Assembly (NCBI GenBank): GCA_963817895.1
Contig: CAWFQB010000001.1
Coordinates: 320,001 to 384,000 of the forward strand
Source: an uncultured Chthonomonadaceae bacterium
GTDB taxonomy: Bacteria; Armatimonadota; Chthonomonadetes; Chthonomonadales; Chthonomonadaceae
Direction of reading: 5' to 3'
DNA length: 64,000 nucleotides
Position 1 is the first letter of the stretch; the number at the start of each line of letters is the position of its first letter. Shown piece by piece: positions 1 to 11,363 of this stretch. The position numbers and the translations under genes are program-made. Below the pieces are notes generated by a model. The model had not been told where the DNA came from and searched no databases. It saw nothing but the letters and a program-made list of their open reading frames with translations.

Positions 1-842
1 GTTCCACCGATGTCTTGAATTTCAACGATGCGGCTGTTTTGGGTATCCGCAATCAGAATGGAGGCGTTGCACGTCAGCGTGAACACGGATTTGAGGGTAG
101 ACTCGGTTTCCTGGATGGTGATATTCGTCGCGCCCAACGTGGTGTTCAAAGTAACGGTCGCCATGTTGCCTGCCTGCGCGATACTGGCAATGCCCTCCGG
201 TCCACTGGTGACAGTGAATTGGCTGGTAATAATGTTGTTGTTATTTATATCCAGAGCCTGAATGTTCAGGTTGAATATGTCTTTGCGTAATCTGGTAAGC
301 GATCCACGATCCGCAATCGCGCTGTCTCCTACCACCGTCACAATAAGCTTCGCGATTGTGGAATTCATCGTCAGGGGAATCTGCAAAGGCACATTGTCAA
401 CAATCGTCAGTAACACGCTGTTGGTAGACTGTAGCGCGTTACCCTGCATCGGATCAGCCGGAAGCCGAGGGTCGGCATGATAAGCCTGAGCGGTTGCATA
501 GAATTGACCGGTCGGCAGCTCTGTGAAAGTGGACGTCGTCACATAGGGCGCCATCGCCGGACGCTGCAAATACTGCGGCGCGCCGTACACTGTGCCGCCG
601 CCATTGATGGTATCCGAAATGGTAATCACGACCCAGTTGGCGGCTTTCGGAACAAGGCGCGCGCTTTTCTGGCGATCCGGCCATTTGAGCGTGAAGACCG
701 CCGCGCCTTTGCCGCGCTTTGCCGTCTGTTTTCCGGCCTGAGTGCCGCTGCCACAGCCGATAAACGACAGCAGCAGCGAGAAAATCAGGAATACGCAGGC
801 GATTGCGCGCGCCCCTGAATTGGAGAGGAGGTTTCCTCGCAT
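1..842 (-). CDS. Lipoprotein with Ig-like domains leading into a probable NHL/beta-propeller region (partial, runs off window start)
   Basis: Manual translation from ATG 842: MRGNLLSNSGARAIACVFLIFSLLLSFIG-C (lipobox), then GAAVFTLKW...ARLVP as in the upstream paralogs, ending ILIADTQNSRIVEI (NHL-like). Absent from the ORF track because there is no stop in the window. Confidence 0.75.
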   Translation of the reverse strand, partial: MRGNLLSNSGARAIACVFLIFSLLLSFIGCGSGTQAGKQTAKRGKGAAVFTLKWPDRQKSARLVPKAANWVVITISDTINGGGTVYGAPQYLQRPAMAPYVTTSTFTELPTGQFYATAQAYHADPRLPADPMQGNALQSTNSVLLTIVDNVPLQIPLTMNSTIAKLIVTVVGDSAIADRGSLTRLRKDIFNLNIQALDINNNNIITSQFTVTSGPEGIASIAQAGNMATVTLNTTLGATNITIQETESTLKSVFTLTCNASILIADTQNSRIVEIQDIGG

Positions 843-851
843 GTCTTTCTC

Positions 852-1997
852 CTAATTAACATTGACTTGGACAGACCCGGAGTAAATCGTTACGTTCGCG
901 TTGGCGAACTGACTGGGATTGTCCTTGCTGGTGGCGCGCACCAAGTAGACGCCCAGCCCCCGGTTCACGGGCGCGGTGTAGAAGCCGGTAGCGGTAATCG
1001 AGCCACCCGAACCATCCGTTACAGGGGTGCCATCAGTTTTCGTAATGCTCCAGGTCACCTGGCCGGAGCCGTCGCCGGGTACGGTCCCGCCGGGTACGGT
1101 TGCCGTGAATTGCTGCGTGTTAAGCAACGCGCCGCCCGGCGCGGTTGCGGGACGTGGCTGCACGACCAGCGTCATAAGGGGCGGCGAAATACTTACCTGA
1201 ACGTCAACCGACACCGTAGCATTATATTTTGTACCCATTGCCGGATCCGAGTCGATCACGAGGTCTGTTGACGGACTATCCCGGTGCAGGGTCACGATGG
1301 CTTTAAGCGCGGCGGTTCCATACTGTTGCGCCGTTGCAACTCCGGTAATCGCATCCACGCGGACGACACTCGTAGACGCGGTAACAGCGTAGGTAATTGC
1401 GCCGACAGGAACCGGCACAACCGCCTCCTGCGCGTCGTATGCTGTCCCCACAACGGTAACGGTGTCGTTGGTAAGCAGTTTGGGTTTAGCGGCGTTGGGG
1501 CCGCTCAAAACCGCTTTGATATGGGTAATGGCGCTATCCGGCGAGATACTCAAACCGGCGGCATGGGCGGCGTCACTATTGCCGGCTGTGACCGTAATCA
1601 TTCCATTTGCTTCGGCCAAAACCACCGAGGCGGGAGTGACATTGGCAGCGACATCGGCATACTCTTTCACGTTCACCGGGAAACTGCCCAGCGGCAGGGT
1701 AAAGGCCGCCGTGCTGATAGAGCTGGGATTTGAGCGCGTAAGCGTGAAGGTCTGCGACGGCGAACCGTCCGTGACGGTAACGATTATGGTGTTCGTATTC
1801 GCCGGAATCAGACGTGTTACGCCCGCGCCGACATGTTTGCCCGTCCCCGTGTCAGCAGAGGGGATATAGGCCGGCCAGTTCACCGTGATGCGCGCAAACC
1901 CGGCTTTCCTGCCGTTCTGGACAGAGGCGCCGCCGCCACAGCCGGCCAGCAGCAGGACCAGCAGGGAAAGCGCGGCGAACGCATAGATTCAATTCAT
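852..1997 (-). CDS. Ig-like domain lipoprotein (paralog 2); in-frame TGA at codon 3
   Basis: SD GGAGGTG then ATG 1997: MN*IYAFAALSLLVLLLAG-CGGG, in frame with ORF 852..1883. C-terminal Ig motif VTWS...G.YTAP...ATS. Confidence 0.75.
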
Positions 1998-2130
1998 GGT
2001 ATCTTCACCTCCAAACGCGCAAACGCGCGTTTGCCTGTATATCTGAGCTCCGGAGTCTGCGCAGGAGAGGCTCCTGCGGTCAAGAATTCCGCCGCGCCTG
2101 AGAATGTGAACACATCGGCGCGGCGCGCCA

Positions 2131-3351
2131 TTAATTGTTGGTTACGGTGATTTGTCCGTAGCCGCCCTGCACGATAATCTTCGCTTTGCCTGCCGGCTGG
2201 TTCGGATCTTCCTGTGAAACGGCCTGTAAATAGTAGGTGCCGGGAGTGCGCGGCGGCGTATAGCGTTCCTGACTGGGATTTACCCCATCATTGTTGACGA
2301 CGGAAAGCGAGCCGCCGCTTGAATCAGGAGTACCATCGCTGTGTATAATCGTCCAGTTCACCCGCTGGTTGGTGGAACCGACGACGTTGGCGGTGAATAC
2401 CTGTGGCGTGTACAGGCCGACAGTGGCAGTGTCGGGCGCGATGCTGACACTGCCCTGCACGGTCACCTGCAGTGTGCTGGAGACGCGGGAGCCTTGATCC
2501 GTGACCGTAACTTTCGTTACGCCGAAGCGCCTGGGCGTGAAGGTCGCAAATCCCGTAGTGGGATCATAGTCCACGGTCGGGTCAAGCACGCCCGGAGCTG
2601 TGGAGGCCCACGCCAGGGTGTTGGGAGCCAGCGGCACAACCGCGCCGCCGGTGTCATAAGCGGTCGCCTTGTACGAAATGGGCGTATTGACCAGAAGCAG
2701 GGCATTGATATCTGTGGCAGGGTTGGCCGGCGTGATCTTGATGTTTTGGATCGTGCTGGCGAGGGTGAAGGTGAAGGGGACGCGCTGATCGGCAAATATC
2801 ACCAGAGAGTCGGATGCCGTTGCCAGCTTCGTGCCTTGCCCCTGCTTCACGGCGGTGGAACTCACGTCAAAAGCGTCTACCTGCACATTCAGCGAAATGA
2901 CCGGCAGATAGTCAATATTCTCTGTGGTGGTCGGGGTTCGGCTCGCCTGCTGATTGGGATCGGCGGGGCTGGCAGCGGGCCGGTCCGAGTAGACAATGGC
3001 CCACGTTTGCGGCGTCGAGTTGCCGGGCGCAGTGCCGGTCAGCGTAATACGCACGGACTGCGCGTTGAGCGGAATGTAGCGCGAAAGCGCGTGGACTAAT
3101 TTGGAAGGGTCATTGGGCCACACGATCTTGACTGTCACCCCCCCGGTTTTCTTGCCGGTCTGCGAGGTGGAAACGGCTGTCCCGGCAGAACCAGCGCTGC
3201 CGCTCCCGCCCCCGCACCCCGCGAGAACAAACACGCATGCCAGCGCGAACAGGCAGGCGGACGCAAGGCGCGGCGCGGCAGGTTTGGATCGGCCCGGAGG
3301 ACGCCGGAATAAACATCGCTTTATGTCGGGCAGCGTGAACACTGATTTCAT
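2131..3351 (-). CDS. Ig-like (Big_2-type) domain lipoprotein (paralog 3)
   Basis: SD GGAG before MKSVF; lipobox VLAG-C; Thr/Val-rich beta-strand repeats (WASTAPGV, VNWT...YTPP). Confidence 0.8.
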   Translation of the reverse strand: MKSVFTLPDIKRCLFRRPPGRSKPAAPRLASACLFALACVFVLAGCGGGSGSAGSAGTAVSTSQTGKKTGGVTVKIVWPNDPSKLVHALSRYIPLNAQSVRITLTGTAPGNSTPQTWAIVYSDRPAASPADPNQQASRTPTTTENIDYLPVISLNVQVDAFDVSSTAVKQGQGTKLATASDSLVIFADQRVPFTFTLASTIQNIKITPANPATDINALLLVNTPISYKATAYDTGGAVVPLAPNTLAWASTAPGVLDPTVDYDPTTGFATFTPRRFGVTKVTVTDQGSRVSSTLQVTVQGSVSIAPDTATVGLYTPQVFTANVVGSTNQRVNWTIIHSDGTPDSSGGSLSVVNNDGVNPSQERYTPPRTPGTYYLQAVSQEDPNQPAGKAKIIVQGGYGQITVTNN

Positions 3352-3421
3352 GGTTATCTCCGTGAACGGGAATGGGGAACAGGCTCTGGTTCCCCATCCG
3401 CTCGATGGCAGGCGCATACGG

Positions 3422-4754
3422 TTACTGCACGGTGATGTCGGTGCTGCCGACCTGGACTTTGAACTTGGCGGTGGCCGCCTGATGCGGGTCCGCCACGCTT
3501 GTCGCGGTTATTTTGTACGGCTTAGACTGCCGGGGGTTGTTGGGGTCCGGGTTGGGTACGCGCTGATCCGGGGTAGGCGCAGGCGCGGTATAGAGTCCGC
3601 CCGCCGTGATGTTGCCTTCGAGTGGGCCAATCGCCGAGCCATCCTGGTTCGTCAGGCTCCACGTAATCAGGCCTGTATCCGCCGCGTCGCTTGAAATCGC
3701 CGTTGGCTGAAGCCCGGTGATGATCGCGACGAACGATCTTTTACTGCCCAGCGTAAACGCTCCGGAATAGGTACCCTCGTTTACGACTTTGTCGAGTGGC
3801 ACATCTTGAATGCCCACGTTGATGCGGGTATAAGCCGTAATGGAATTGGATATATTGAAGCCCAGTTCCGTAATGGTAATTGTCGCCGCCCCTACTTTGT
3901 CGCCTGTCTTCGGATGGAGTATCGGGGAAGCGCCAATGTAGCCTGGCGTAAGTTCGCCGGTAGCCGGGTTGACGTTCACAACTGTACTGTCTGAGGTTTT
4001 CCATTGCAGCTGGCTCGGGTCCACGAATACGTTGTTGCCTTTGGCGTCCACGGGATTGGCGGTGAGTTTGAGAGTCTTGCCGGATGTCAGTTCCGGCAGG
4101 CCATCCGTAGTCGGCTGAATGTTGAAATGGTCTATCGTGCTGTTGAGGCTGATGACAATGGTGGCTGTTTTGTTGCTGGTGGAAAGCGTGACCTGCTGCT
4201 CGAAAGCGGCGGTGGCAACATCTTTGTCGAACTGTGTGCCGTCGCCGCTGGTGAGCGGTTCAGCGTAGGTGCGTACCTGCACACGGAGTTTATCCAGAGG
4301 AATTTCGGGCAGGTTTACGTTGTACTGCCCGGTCGAATTGTAATTGCCGTTGGCGGTCGAACTGTTGACGAGGTTGTCAATTTTAACAGGCTGGAAAGGA
4401 TTGGTTTTATTGGTCTCATCGTAGGGGATGGCGACATCCCAGATAGGCAGGGGAAGCTCGTTCTGGCTCGCGTCCTGGGTCAACTGTGAAATAGTGATGC
4501 GAAAGGTATGTGTGCGGGTCGGCACGGCGCGGCGTCCGTCCGGCTTTTTTGCCCGCCTCGGCATCGTTCTTGAGAACAAAGATCAGTTTGCCGCTTTGTT
4601 GGATGGGAGCCGTGTTCTGGCTGCCGCCTGTGGCGGTTGTGGCGGCAGTGGAAGCCGTGCTTCGCGCCGTGCCGTTCCCGCCACACCCCGTGAGCAACAG
4701 GACGCCGACCGGCAGCAGAGCGGCTATCAACTTGCGTTGCGCATTATAAATCAT
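3422..4754 (-). CDS. Ig-like domain lipoprotein (paralog 4), frameshift near 4550
   Basis: Signal and lipobox LLTG-C in ORF 4416..4772 join the body in ORF 3422..4579; Big_2-like WKTSDSTVVNV motif. Confidence 0.75.
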
Positions 4755-4768
4755 GGATAATCTCCCTG

Positions 4769-5966
4769 TCACGGTTGAAACGAAATGTCCAGGCTGCCCA
4801 GCGAAACTTTCACTGTCGCCACAGCGCTGATGCCCTTATCGAAAACAGAAGTGGCAATCAAATGATAAACGCCGGATTTAGCCGGGGGGATGTATTGCGC
4901 CACATTGGGATTGTTTGCATCTACGACGATCCTCCCCTGGTTGCTTTCGCGGATGCTCCAGGTGACATCGAGATTGGAGTTGTGCGCGATGGCATTCAGA
5001 GTAGTATTGAGTGGACTGGCATCCGTCGGTGGCGTCACGGTTGCGGTGAATTTGTACGCGATGTTGCTGGTCACGTCACCATTTTGCCCGAGTTGCTGTG
5101 GATCAATGACAACGTGCGTGGAAGAGTAGACTGTGATGGGCGCCGGATCGCTGGTGGTTGTTCCGACCTGTACCCGAACACTCGCCGTCCCGGATTGCAG
5201 CCCCTGTAGACTGTCCTGTGGGCTGTTGACCGTTTGATCCCTCGGCACGACCTTCAGGTAACTCGCGCCGTCGGGAATGGAGATGTTGACGCTCAGGGGG
5301 TTGACGGCCACAACAGACTGATTAGTGCCGGTTCCCAGATAGGCGACGAATTGCAAGTGGGTCGGCATGTGATCTTGCGCCTGCGCAGCGGAATCGCCGC
5401 TCTTCGGATACAGGTCTTGATCCAGCTTGACCGGCACAGACTGACCGGGCGTAACCACAATGAGGTCGGGCTGCTGCGATGTCGTCAGGTTCAAAACGCC
5501 GCCGGCCTCCGTGACGGTGACAGTGGTATCTATTTCGGCCAGCGCGTTATTGGATTTGCCAAGAAAAACGGCTTTTACGTCGCGCTTGCCAACCTTGACG
5601 AAGGTGGGAGGATAGTAGGTCTGAGGTTCGGGCGCGTTCATTGAAGTGTCGCGGGTGGCGATAAGTATGATGTCGTTGCCGTTCTGGTCCGCTTTGGACA
5701 GAGTGATTTTCGCGGATTGCGCGTCCACAGCGGCAATAACCGGGGCGGTATCCCGGTTCAGACGGAGACCAGACAGCGTGGGGGACACGCTCGCCTTTCC
5801 CTGTGACGCGTTTTGGGCCGGGGCATTGTCCGCCCACTGAATTCTGAACGCCACGGCGCGGCGTCAGTTCGCCGCTGGGAGTTCCCAGGTTGCCGGTACA
5901 GGCAGTCAACAGGCTTCCCGGCAGGGCAAGCGCTATGGCGTAAAGCCATCGAAACGGTTTGCGCAT
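4769..5966 (-). CDS. Ig-like domain lipoprotein (paralog 5, first gene of operon), frameshift near 5855
   Basis: Lipobox LLTA-C in ORF 5547..5966 continues into ORF 4769..5854; same C-terminal Ig motif as the paralogs. Confidence 0.75.
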
Positions 5967-6260: not shown

Positions 6261-7698
6261 CTAATTTTTCGCGCTCCTGCTTTTTTCTCCGGGCGGCTTT
6301 ACCGCAGAGGCGTTTTCCGCGTTTTCTCTTGTTTTGCGCGCGGCTTCCCTGTTTTTGATTTCGTCGCGCTCTCTTTTTCTGTGAGCCTCCACCTCTTCCA
6401 GCACAGGCAGGGTATCCAGAACTTTCGTGGGTATGACATTGCCTTCAAAGCCGGTTTTCCACGTCCAAACCGTCTCATCGCCGAGACCGGGCACTTCAGC
6501 AACGATCTTCTTCGCATCGGGCTTCAGATCGAAAAAACAGTAGATGCCTTCGCTGTTGGTAGTGGTGCGGGAATCGCCGCAGCGGACGACGATGTTCGCG
6601 GCGGGCAGGGGGCCGCGTTCCGCAGTCCGCGTCTTCGTCCCCTGCGCCTCATCCTGCTCCTTTGCCCGTTGAAAATAAAGCCGTCCCGCAAGGGAAACCG
6701 TTGCCTCGCGCTCTTTTTCCTGCATCCCCCGGGCATTTCGCTGCTCTGCATCTCGTGTCGAAACGACCTGGGTAATGTCTTTGTCAGCAGGCGCAACGAA
6801 TTTCACTTCCATCGGTTTGAGCTGATTGGCCTGACCGGGCGGGGGCGCTGTAATCTCTTCTACATGCTCTTTGTAGCGCCAGTGTCGAACATGCGCCTGA
6901 TATTTCCCGGGCGGCAGGTTGAGCAGATAGAAAAATCCCCGATAATCCGAAGTGGCCGTTTCGTCTCGTCCGTCCAGCGTGAGAACCGCGCCCGATACGG
7001 GGCGGTCTGTCGCCTTGTCTATGGCGATGCCGGCCACGCTGACGCGGAGCGTCGAGCGGTCGAGCGGGTGCTGCGGCCCGTCGGGACCGGCTCCCTGTCC
7101 GATTCCCGTTATCGCCTCCAGGACAACCGGCGTCCACTTGCTGATATAAGGATTGAACATTACCGTGGCGACCAGACTTAACGCGGGACGGGGCGCGGCG
7201 CTGAGAGCTTGCCATAGCCTGCCGGGGTCTGCCATCAGGAGGTGATCGGGCTGGGCAACCGTCAACAGCATGGCATTGGTTTTGAAAAGCTGTAGATCGC
7301 CTACCAGATATTCCGTTTCCACGTAGGGGGCGCGCATCAGGACGCCCAGCACATTGCCGAGTAGTTCGTGTTCGGCTGTGCCATTCAACCCCGTTACGGT
7401 TATCAGATAAGACAGGTCGAATCGCGCCGGGGCGCAGCGTGATCTCGATGAGCCGCTCCGAAACCTGGCTTTTGCGCTGAAAAGATTCGGCGCGCAGCAT
7501 CACGTTTTCCTGCACATGGCATAGATAGAGATTGATGCGGGGCGTATTGTCGCTGTCGGTCGCGCCGTTGTCATTTTTGGCAAGTTCGGCGGGTGACAGA
7601 AAAGTAATCTGCTCGGACTTCTGAACAGGGCAGTCGTGAATATCGCTTAACTGCGCGGACAACAATTTTCGCAGTGTTTCATCAGCATCTTTTATCAT
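6261..7698 (-). CDS. DUF4255/Pvc16-like protein fused to carboxypeptidase-regulatory-like domains, frameshift near 7430
   Basis: MIKDADETLRKLL...INLYLCHVQEN and EHELLGNVL...LWQAL...RPALSLVAT are DUF4255-like; PVSGAVLTL...TSDYRGFFYLLNLPPGKY is CarboxypepD_reg-like. Confidence 0.7.
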
Positions 7699-7973
7699 AA
7701 GCAGGTTCCATAAGGCTTGAAAGATCGCGCTATAAAAGGTATAGCACATTAACCGCCATTTTTATACATTAAATTCCACTTTTGTGACAATAATCAAATA
7801 TTTTTTTCAACGTATCCCACTTGCGACATTAAGATGGAGGTGTTGTATTGTTGTGATTACGCGCCGGGGCTATTCACAGACCCGCTCGTCAGGTAATTGT
7901 GTCCCTTATCCTGCTCGATACGATCATTTCTGTTCCTCTACCCGCTATTTTGCGCCCCGTTGTCCTCGAACGC

Positions 7974-8231: not shown

Positions 8232-9928
8232 ATGTTGCACTCTCGCTTGCGGACATCGTTCCGCATGTCCTCTTCCCGCGCCGCGAATCGGCGGACTGCT
8301 CGGCGCGTGGGCGCGGCTGTTTTGCTGCTGGCCCTGCTCGGCCCGTCCTCCCGCTTTGTTCTGCGCGCCGCGCGCGCACAGGATGCCGACCCGGTTCTCG
8401 CCAAACTCGCGCAGGGGAAACTCGACGCGCCCATGGCGGTGGAATGGAAGTTTACGGGCAATGCGTTTCCCAACAACGGCGCCGCTCCCGTTGTTTCTGA
8501 AAACACGGCATTCTTCGCGTCCGGCAGCATCGTGTACGCGGTTGACCTTGCCAGTGGCGCGCAAAAGTGGCGCTATCCCTCCGTTGGCACACTGGCCCGC
8601 GCCATTCTGTTCACGCCCGCGTACAGCGAAGGAACGCTGTTCTTGAGTACGGGCGATGGCCTGACCGCCCTGGATGCCGAAACGGGCAAACTGCGCTATC
8701 CCGGCTTTGTCGTGCCGAACGGCGCGACCACATCGCCCGTCGTTATCGGGGACGCGGTGTATTTCGGCGGCGGTAATGGGCGCATTTTCGGACTTCACGC
8801 CCAACCGGCGATCCTGTCAGCGCTGTTTATCGAAACGGCCTGTCGCTGTCAACTGACATTACGGGCAACATGACGGCGCAGAACGGCCTGCTGTATGTGA
8901 TTACCGCCAACCAGGTGCTTCACGCCGTAGACGCCCTGACGGGCAACCAGCGCTGGCAGCAGCGCGTGGAGGGCGAAACGCGCGGCGCAACGCCCATGCC
9001 CGCCGGGGACACCCTCTTTGTGTCCGCCGGCTCGGCGCTGAATGCGTACCGCAGCGGAACGGGCCAGATGCGGTGGCAGCAGCCACGCCGCGCAACATCG
9101 CCGCGCCTCCCGTCGTGGACAGTGAGGGCAGAGCCTACTATTGTCACGTCCGAACGCGCCGTATACGCGGTGGAGAGTCTGGGGAACCGTTCCCGCTACG
9201 CTTGGAAGAGTTGTGCCGCAGGTGGACAGCAATGTTATCGCGCAGCCGCTGGTGACGGAAGACCTCGTGATTGTCGCCACGCAGGGCGGCGGCGTGTGGG
9301 CGTTCGACCGGGCGACGGGCGCGACGCGCTGGAACTACCTGCTGCATCCGAGCGGCACGGAAATCATTCCGGCTCCCTCGCGAACGGGCGTGGACGCGCA
9401 CCCGGTTGCCGTCGGCGACACGCTGTACACCCTTTCGGACGACGGCACGCTGACCGCGTTCCGACACGATGCCAGCGACCAATCTCCCCCTGTTGTAACT
9501 CCCGATGACGCCGCTTCAGGGCGATTACGTCAACGGTCAGCCGCCATTTTCCATCAAGGCGCATCTGCTGGACGAAGGCTCCGGCCTGAACGTGGATACC
9601 CTGTCCATGAAGATTGACGACAACCAAATTCCACTGCAGAAACAGTTGGGTATCGGGGTCAACGGGTTCTACTATGAGAACGCCACCGGCCAGTTGCAGT
9701 ACACCATCTATCCGAACACGGCGGCGGGACGCACGACCGCTCTTGGCGACGGCCACCATACCGTGACTATCAGCGGTCAAAGACTGGATGGGCAACACCA
9801 CCATCAAAACGTGGGGCTTCACCGTTGACGATACCATTGTGCGCCGACGCCCGCCGGTACGGGTCCGGGCGGTGAGGCCGGCGGTAAAGGCGGCGGAACT
9901 CGGACCGGGTGGGCCGGGGGGCCAGTAA
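8232..9928 (+). CDS. Secreted PQQ-like beta-propeller repeat protein (BamB-like repeats) with C-terminal Ig-like domain; several frameshifts, end approximate
   Basis: Repeated YAVDLASGAQKW / ALDAETGKLR / AFDRATGATRW motifs across ORFs 8232, 8870, 9141 and 9505; signal peptide. Confidence 0.75.
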
Positions 9929-10066
9929 TGGACTAGTTGCCAAATGGCCCTCCTAACCCCTGACCCCTTCTCCCAACAGGTATTTCGGAGAAGGCGGAAC
10001 TACGAATGTCGGGGATAGGGTTACCGTTGGGAAGATTCGCTGCCCTGTTTTCGGTAACTGGCCGCT

Positions 10067-11363
10067 ATGCCTGATACCTCGACCACGTTCACATCCCCAT
10101 CCGCTTCGCGCGCCCGGTGTCCACACCGGGCGCGCTTCCGATCCTGCCTGACGCCGAACTGCTGCGCGCGTGGCTGCATCTGGCGAATGTGCAGCTCAGT
10201 CCCGCGTGTTGCAGCCCTGCTGCTGGCCTATTTCGACAACGACCCCCGCGCCATTCTCGCCGCCTCGGAGAGGAACTGGAACAGGCGGGCTGCCCGCCGC
10301 CGCCCCTCGCCCGCCTGCGCGACCCGCTGTATCAGCCGACGCCGGAACAGGAACGCTGGCTGGAACGCCCCGACATTCGCCTGCTGTGGCAGTCGCACCC
10401 GGAGTATCCCCGCGCTCTGCAAGATATTCCTACGCCGCCGCCCATTCTGTTTGTTCGGGGCGAACTGCGCGAAACGGATAGGTTGGGCGTGGGCATCGTA
10501 GGTTCGCGCCGCGCCACGCCTTATGGCCGGACGATAGCGCACAAACTGGCGCGTGAACTGGTGGGGCATGGGCTGACGATTATCAGCGGGGGCGCGGTGG
10601 GCATTGACGCCGCCGCGCATCAGGGGGCATTGGACGGGGGCGGGCGTACCATTGCCATCGTCGGGTGCGGGTTGGACGTGGATTATCCGCAGGCTAATCG
10701 CGCCATGTTCGACAAAATCGCGTCACAGGGCGCAATTATTATCTGAATATCCGTTCGGTTCTCAGCCGGAGGCGTGGCGTTTCCCGCAACGCAATCGGGT
10801 GATCAGCGGCATGGCGCAGGGCGTCCTCGTGGTGGAAGCGCCTGAATCCAGCGGCGCGTTGAACACGGTTCGCCACGCGCTGGAACAGGGGCGTCCCGTT
10901 CTGTCCGTGCCGGGCAACATTGACCGTCCGGCATCCGTCGGCACGAACAATCTGATAAAAGAGGGCGCGACGCCGATCACGGAAACCGGGGATATTTTGC
11001 GCGCCCTGAACATGGTCGTGGTTCCCGCCCGCGCGGAACATCAGCGCATGTTCGATCTCGCCCCCTCCTCGTCCGACTCGCCGGAAATCGCAACAGCGAA
11101 CAATACCATTTCTGACAGGCAAACGCGCGTCCTCTGCTTCCGGCGCTTCGATTGCGCAATCGTCTGCCGCATCCGCGCCGCCGCACTTATCAGCCCCGCA
11201 ACGCGCCCTGCTGACGTGCCTGTCGCTCACGCCCCGCCACATTGACGCCGTAGCGCAGGAAGCGGGCCTTCCCACCGTGCAGGCGGGCGTGGAAATGACC
11301 CTGATGGAACTCAACGGCCTCGTCCGCCGCCTCCCCGGCAACACCTACATACGCGCTCTCTAA
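10067..11363 (+). CDS. dprA: DNA-processing protein DprA, frameshifted
   Basis: YPRALQDIPTPPPILFVRG, IVGSRRATPYG, ISGGAVGID, FPQRNRVISG, VVEAPESSGAL, VPGNID; C-terminal winged helix (LMELNGLVRRLPG). Confidence 0.9.

Follow-up and report, generated by a model that had tools for sequence, protein, structure and literature searches.

A tandem lipoprotein array of Armatimonadota that may assemble into a short stalk by protease-triggered donor-strand exchange

Five tandem lipoprotein genes, here called G1 to G5, lie at the beginning of a stretch of 64,000 nucleotides from the genome of an uncultured Chthonomonadaceae bacterium of the phylum Armatimonadota (assembly GCA_963817895.1, contig CAWFQB010000001.1; genome size 7.5 Mb, 81% complete). 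The whole stretch, G000:C1:320001-384000, is referred to as the window. We consider it fairly probable that the products of these genes form a short, membrane-anchored and gene-ordered stalk with an NHL tip, and that this stalk is assembled by protease-triggered donor-strand exchange. An Arg-specific protease would cut the loop after the first strand of G2 to G5, the lipidated first strand would leave and free a groove, and the C-terminal tail of the upstream gene's product would fill it. G1 would remain uncut and anchor the chain G1>G2>G3>G4>G5, which might comprise about 14 beta-sandwich domains plus the propeller and measure some tens of nanometres. A surface location and a role in adhesion are suggested by the propeller and by analogy, with exposure being assumed. 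The features concerned are as follows (window positions).

4769..5966, minus strand: G1, the likely anchor; a lipoprotein with a divergent first domain without Arg-h-h-Pro site (h, hydrophobic), Big_2-like and Ig domains and a donor tail (sequence, HHalign, same-genus ortholog)
4772..4798, minus strand: donor tail of G1 (sequence; top 2.2% of control ORF ends; ORF, open reading frame)
3422..4754, minus strand: G2, putative shaft subunit; lipobox, first strand, Arg site, two Ig-type domains and donor tail (sequence)
3425..3448, minus strand: donor tail of G2 (sequence; top 1.7% of control ORF ends)
2131..3351, minus strand: G3, putative shaft subunit, intact (sequence; recovered as P0010)
3070..3084, minus strand: predicted cleavage site of G3, Ser-Arg-Tyr-Ile-Pro (sequence; family conservation)
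2134..2163, minus strand: donor tail of G3, which almost copies the first strand of G4 (BLOSUM comparison)
852..1998, minus strand: G4, putative shaft subunit, modelled as precursor and as mature form (sequence, AlphaFold)
1878..1904, minus strand: first strand of G4, the presumed placeholder, residues 13-21 after the lipidated Cys (AlphaFold strand E13-21)
1812..1814, minus strand: Arg43 of G4, predicted P1, directly after the disordered stretch 34-42 (AlphaFold)
855..878, minus strand: donor tail of G4, coil in both models (sequence, AlphaFold)
1..842, minus strand: G5, putative tip subunit; first strand, Arg site at 648-662, Big_2-like domain and NHL propeller, no donor tail (sequence, Pfam)

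A sequence-only reading of this DNA had described five co-oriented paralogous lipoproteins with lipoboxes, first strands, Arg-h-h-Pro sites and terminal strands, the last gene running into NHL-like sequence. All of these elements are present where that reading had placed them. The array occupies the minus strand from 5966 to beyond position 1, and each of the five genes encodes a lipobox (in G1 and G2 after reading through a frameshift; G4 has a stop at codon 3). G1 to G4 have a common layout, in which the first domain is followed by a Big_2-like domain, then by a second Ig domain and finally by a G-x-h-x-h-x-h tail. This C-terminal tail of 7-10 residues resembles the first strand and is missing from G5, and the Arg-h-h-Pro site after the first strand is found in G2 to G5. 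The NHL repeats of G5 match Pfam PF01436 (E 1.8e-15), and the propeller continues past the window start to about genome position C1:319150. Taken alone, G1 gave no significant match to the canonical first domain, but its subfamily is homologous to it (HHalign 97%, E 9.5e-11). The same-genus ortholog of G1 has no Arg in the loop. The role of G1 as uncut anchor is likely on the strength of its orthologs, and the status of G1 itself is less certain.

A family profile was built from eight paralogs. It yielded 13 matches in the source genome and detected the family in 60 of 151 genomes of Armatimonadota; the first domain has no model in Pfam or NCBIfam. The family comprises 1619 clusters at 50% identity, of which the best 150 were listed. 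The named relatives of the proteins are from Armatimonadota, one being labelled Chloroflexota on a 5 kb contig. A search for related loci yielded 2. The loci examined were an initial 40, then 20 more, plus 20 around clostripains.

The resemblance between tails and first strands exceeds chance. Tails were scored with a matrix derived solely from the first strands of 138 database proteins, with 3088 control ORF ends for comparison, and a tail above their 95th percentile was called strict. The count excludes four frameshifted ORFs as well as any ORF truncated by the end of a locus. The four window tails rank within the top 0.4-4.2% of the control ends. Strict tails were found in 17 of 34 non-final array genes but in only 4 of 43 final ones (Fisher 9e-5), and most exceptions to this position rule are either tips in duplicate or divergent members that have no Arg site. 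Among genes with enough upstream sequence, a strict tail lies upstream of 48 of the 97 that carry an [RK]-h-h-[PA] site and of none of the 22 that lack it, 6 of these 22 being orthologous clostripain fusions from one genus (background 93/3088). Site and donor thus appear to be lost together. Homologous domains without the site, such as those of clostripain fusions and anchors, show that the fold does not require the Arg.

Lipoproteins that have the tail but no first domain adjoin many arrays, and two anchors consist of nothing but a lipobox, a Pro/Thr linker and the tail. Due to these tail-only anchors, the tail cannot be regarded as part of a domain; the identical tail type also follows unrelated passenger domains. 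Many loci consist of an anchor and a tip only. A survey of homologous arrays in Armatimonadota had been suggested from the sequence, and in it the same grammar (anchor without site, shafts with site and tail, tip without donor) recurs across the phylum.

In the AlphaFold model of the G4 precursor (predicted local distance difference test, pLDDT, 85) the first domain has seven strands with an ordered strand 1, and residues 34-42, immediately before Arg43, have a pLDDT under 50. When residues 1-43 are removed (pLDDT 86), only strands 4 and 7 among the remaining ones are no longer assigned as strands, which suggests that strand 1 lies between these two as the middle strand of a three-stranded sheet. 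The tail extends only 8 residues beyond the last Ig strand and is coil in the precursor and the mature model; since it also occurs on proteins without the domain, the objection that it might be an integral part of its own Ig domain does not apply. The tail of the mature G4 monomer is not inserted into its own groove. As a rigid three-domain rod cannot easily self-insert, this absence is uninformative on binding. In fold searches with G4, domains 2 and 3 matched Big_2 (VIA; Z 10.5, rmsd 2.1, 83 aligned residues) and LigA (Z 8.9), the best fold matches of the C-terminal domains being Big_2, Ig and cadherin; no pilin is among the matches listed, which are filled by domains 2 and 3.

The P1 residue is Arg in 182 and Lys in 6 of 202 parsed domains (205 domains non-redundant at 70%, 3 unparsed), a conservation that is inflated and partly circular because the search profile itself contains the motif. 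The distance from the first-strand Trp to P1 varies from 2 to 46 residues. From sequence conservation and from the models, a cleavage site is predicted at this Arg in an exposed beta1-beta2 loop. A buried or unconserved loop had been named as an argument against cleavage; the loop is disordered in the model and the Arg is conserved.

The size of tail residue 3 is likely to act as a key that chooses the next subunit. Across 23 genomes, 47 pairs of neighbouring donor and acceptor genes show co-variation between residue 3 of the tail and residue 3 of the first strand of the next gene (score 58, compared to 7.6 after global and 17.8 after within-genome shuffling, with 0 of 4000 shuffles reaching this value), and position 3 was the only one of six to pass the global co-variation test. 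Acceptors with Ala are paired with Gly, Ala, Thr or Ser in the donor in 20 of 26 cases, and acceptors with Leu, Ile, Met or Phe with a large donor residue in 15 of 17. In 7 cases a subunit's own strand is unlike the next one, and in 6 of these the tail agrees with the next gene. Within the window, the pairs G1>G2 (Leu/Leu) and G3>G4 (Gly/Ala) fit and G2>G3 (Thr/Val) comes near; the G3 tail scores 23 (BLOSUM) with the G4 strand and -2 to 8 with the other three. A pocket residue compensating tail residue 3 gave no interpretable signal. The evidence favours a gene-ordered chain, in which repeats are possible.

Our best candidate for the maturase, put forward as a lead, is clostripain (C11). It is present in 56 of the 60 family-bearing genomes (28 of 32 for strong hits) compared to 39 of 91 others; these genomes are related, and some family hits are clostripain fusions themselves. 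In several genomes a module of first domain and Big_2 is fused to clostripain, usually without the Arg site and once with it. The source genome encodes a Cys-type, apparently secreted C11, and a review (PMC12632263) names the surface clostripain as the protease that cuts Bacteroidales pilins. At L082:4386-6803, a subunit whose Arg site is canonical carries a clostripain domain as its “tip”.

Other candidates were rejected. Gingipain (C25) does not track the family: it was found neither in the 81% complete source genome nor in any of 8 family members, and in 9 of the 60 family-bearing genomes. Adjacent caspase-like genes are no general maturase, as a C14 motif was found near arrays at 3 of 67 loci, all from one genus, and an adjacent beta-barrel considered as translocon was seen only in the same genus. 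In this genus, at L001:297-6921 (minus strand), L003:7666-11513 and L103:14191-18602, a small beta-barrel-like ORF ending in Phe and a WD40 + caspase-like protein lie downstream of the arrays; L001 further encodes another C14 protein together with one that is TPR-like. No conserved protease gene was found beside the arrays among the neighbours of the examined loci.

Several observations weigh against the proposed stalk. Four of its five genes (G1, G2, G4 and G5) are broken as assembled. The sheet topology was deduced from lost strand assignments, not from coordinates. If only one pair per genome is used, the co-variation signal is weaker (17/23 matches in the median, median p 0.035), and the genomes are related. 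The pair G4>G5 (Val/Ala) is mismatched in the window, the same-genus ortholog of G4 having Ala. No strict tail lies upstream of 49 of the 97 site-bearing genes, and 5 of 10 genomes searched with an Ig-plus-tail profile have no evident donor, although minimal anchors would escape this profile. The loop of G1 holds Arg residues, and other members of its subfamily carry Arg after the first strand. C11 is missing from 4 of the 60 family-bearing genomes, and in most of 20 loci (L080-L099) Ser replaces the catalytic Cys of the C11 lipoprotein, with the His-Gly motif kept. This conserved lipoprotein of Armatimonadota may be a pseudo-protease or a Ser-nucleophile variant; the broken copy in the source genome (G000:C1:75000-76800) is of the Ser type too. 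Finally, the tails of 14 of 21 shafts also suit the strand of the same subunit, which makes self-polymerisation possible.

The breaks in the locus are probably assembly errors, with support from a second run for G2 only. G1 has a one-base frameshift near 5860 and G2 one at 4531, both in the same 14-base context, G4 has an in-frame stop at codon 3 (1990-1992), and the gene of G5 is broken at its tail end. Of the five, only G3 is intact as assembled. A contig of 181 bases from run X2 (depth 3) lacks the extra base of G2 and is otherwise identical, and the G2 break is therefore probably an assembly error. A contig from run X1 has a one-base gap inside G4 (window 1037, depth 3), and among the matches listed for the two runs no piece spans the G1 break or the G4 start. 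Read through, G2 has Thr before the Arg, as in the consensus, and not Arg, and the first strand of G1 agrees with its same-genus ortholog. The motifs RRAVP (G2) and RGVAFRIQW (G1) of the sequence-only reading are thus partly frameshift artefacts. Other genes nearby are fragmented as well, including PQQ/BamB-like and DprA-like genes (named by sequence appearance) that lie in frameshifted pieces at 8232-11245, which is consistent with indel errors in the assembly.

Self-matching shafts lead to the first of three other explanations, in which the chemistry is the same but one or more shafts repeat many times and form a long pilus of the FimA/Mfa1 kind, terminated by G1 and tipped by G5. Each shaft offers a socket as well as a tail and could therefore repeat, and the G4 tail is best with the G3 strand and the G3 tail with the G4 strand, which would permit a G3-G4 repeat. 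However, tails follow the next gene where their own strand differs, many loci have no shaft between anchor and tip, and in none of the three window shafts does tail residue 3 equal the residue of its own first strand. We regard a long pilus as unlikely. Of the donor-strand-polymerised fibre with propeller tip that had been proposed for this array, the donor-strand part is supported by the free tail, the conserved and disordered Arg loop and the recurring grammar, whereas a long homopolymeric fibre gives way to a short gene-ordered chain.

Improbable to a greater degree is a system without cleavage, in which all subunits stay lipid-anchored, the Arg is structural and the tail either binds as an additional edge strand or acts as a C-terminal signal for sorting. 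The lack of a conserved protease gene alongside the arrays and the partial circularity of the Arg count would fit this explanation. Against it stand the homologous domains that have neither Arg site nor upstream tail (0/22), and a sorting signal would not be absent from tips nor co-vary with the first strand of a neighbour. Independent Ig-like surface adhesins from tandem duplication, shed by the Arg cut and with the tail as a relic, are the least probable option: roughly every second gene with the site has no donor next to it, and similarity to Big_2, LigA and S-layer Ig domains is seen in domains 2 and 3, but position-dependent tails, tail-only anchors and neighbour-specific co-variation would be left unexplained, and the unreplaced loss of a middle strand would destabilise the domain.

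The grammar of the G1 to G5 array recurs in the same genome, where three further arrays consist of shaft and NHL tip, of anchor, shaft and NHL tip, and of shaft and PQQ-type propeller tip. In the same genus, divergent operons start from one point at L103:6200-14200, one with anchor and shaft, the other with shaft and two near-duplicate tips, and their gene content suggests mix-and-match assembly. At L048, L063 and L074, arrays of G1-type subunit and tip are followed by a secreted protein of 1100-1340 amino acids with weak Sortilin-Vps10 matches. A divergent first-domain subfamily, in tandem and mostly without Arg site and without tails, adjoins FecR-domain and sensor-like genes at L051, L105 and G000:C2:528000-529800. 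The window array itself is flanked by a Pvc16-like gene and a contractile injection system cluster with CIS_tube, baseplate OB domain, gp25, baseplate J and Tail_P2_I (window 6261-7749, minus strand; L149:6182-14551, plus strand). This neighbourhood is absent from other arrays and thus probably incidental.

We would put at slightly below even the chances of a broader proposal, namely that these arrays represent a phylum-wide, protease-gated plug-and-socket display. A size-keyed tail of 8 residues would programme gene-ordered chains, and interchangeable tips (propellers, other binding domains, even clostripain) would be mounted on shared anchors; the socket and the N-domain of type V pilins would be distantly homologous, and the principle would be older and wider than Bacteroidia. 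A large unannotated family would gain a function in a phylum with barely studied surface biology, and the minimal parts, a socket of 100 residues, a tail of 8 residues and a key of one residue, could serve as a protease-gated protein connector.

Among known systems, chaperone-usher pili, archaeal cannulae and Tat-fimbriae use donor-strand complementation but are not known to be built from Arg-cut lipoprotein precursors, and chaperone-usher donors are N-terminal. Neither usher nor chaperone was found among the conserved neighbours of the arrays. Big_2/Ig-repeat adhesins and S-layer domains (LigA, Sap, invasin) are like domains 2 and 3 of G4 but have no placeholder strand, Arg site or donor tail. 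For the first domain, weak matches below the cut-offs were obtained to DUF4493 (PF14900) in 6 of 78 members (best E 1.5e-5; Atlas score 0.80) and to CarboxypepD_reg and SpaA in 2 of 78 each; DUF4493 has no match in the source genome, and the term is absent from the literature searched. We take the prealbumin-like resemblance of the first domain as a lead only. The Atlas gave low-score matches only, with two Myxococcota-rich clusters at 0.88-0.89. No pilin family is among the 25 of 31 families listed for the 78 first domains and no pilin among 26 PDB hits, and G1 to G5 have no pilin family match in Pfam or NCBIfam, PF13149 staying below the cut-off across the genome. In the literature searched, with subscription papers and preprint supplements outside its scope, no description of this system was found.

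Type V pili (FimA/Mfa1 stalk, FimB/Mfa2 anchor, Mfa3-5 accessory or tip), as described in PMC13655056 and PMC12632263, are alike in having lipoprotein precursors with an Arg site in the beta1-beta2 loop, a C-terminal donor, an anchor without site and a tip that has no donor but a ligand-binding domain. Their first strand lies in a beta1/beta4/beta7 sheet, as the models suggest here; in Mfa1, according to PMC13655056, the anchor strand sits in a sheet with beta4 and beta7. In contrast, the type V donor consists of two self-complementing strands and the second domain is transthyretin-like, whereas the Armatimonadota proteins have a single free strand of 7-8 residues and, judging by the best fold matches, Big_2/Ig spacers (0-5 or more). 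Their anchors can be a bare linker, there is evidence of gene-ordered specificity, and no gingipain was found in the genome. The hosts differ as well, type V pili being described as unique to Bacteroidia in a 2026 paper (PMC13655056). By sequence families, donor architecture and host, the proteins are thus not members of the type V group, but they are type V-like in their predicted mechanism. A second lineage that uses the cut-and-swap principle with a different architecture would bear on the origin of this mechanism.

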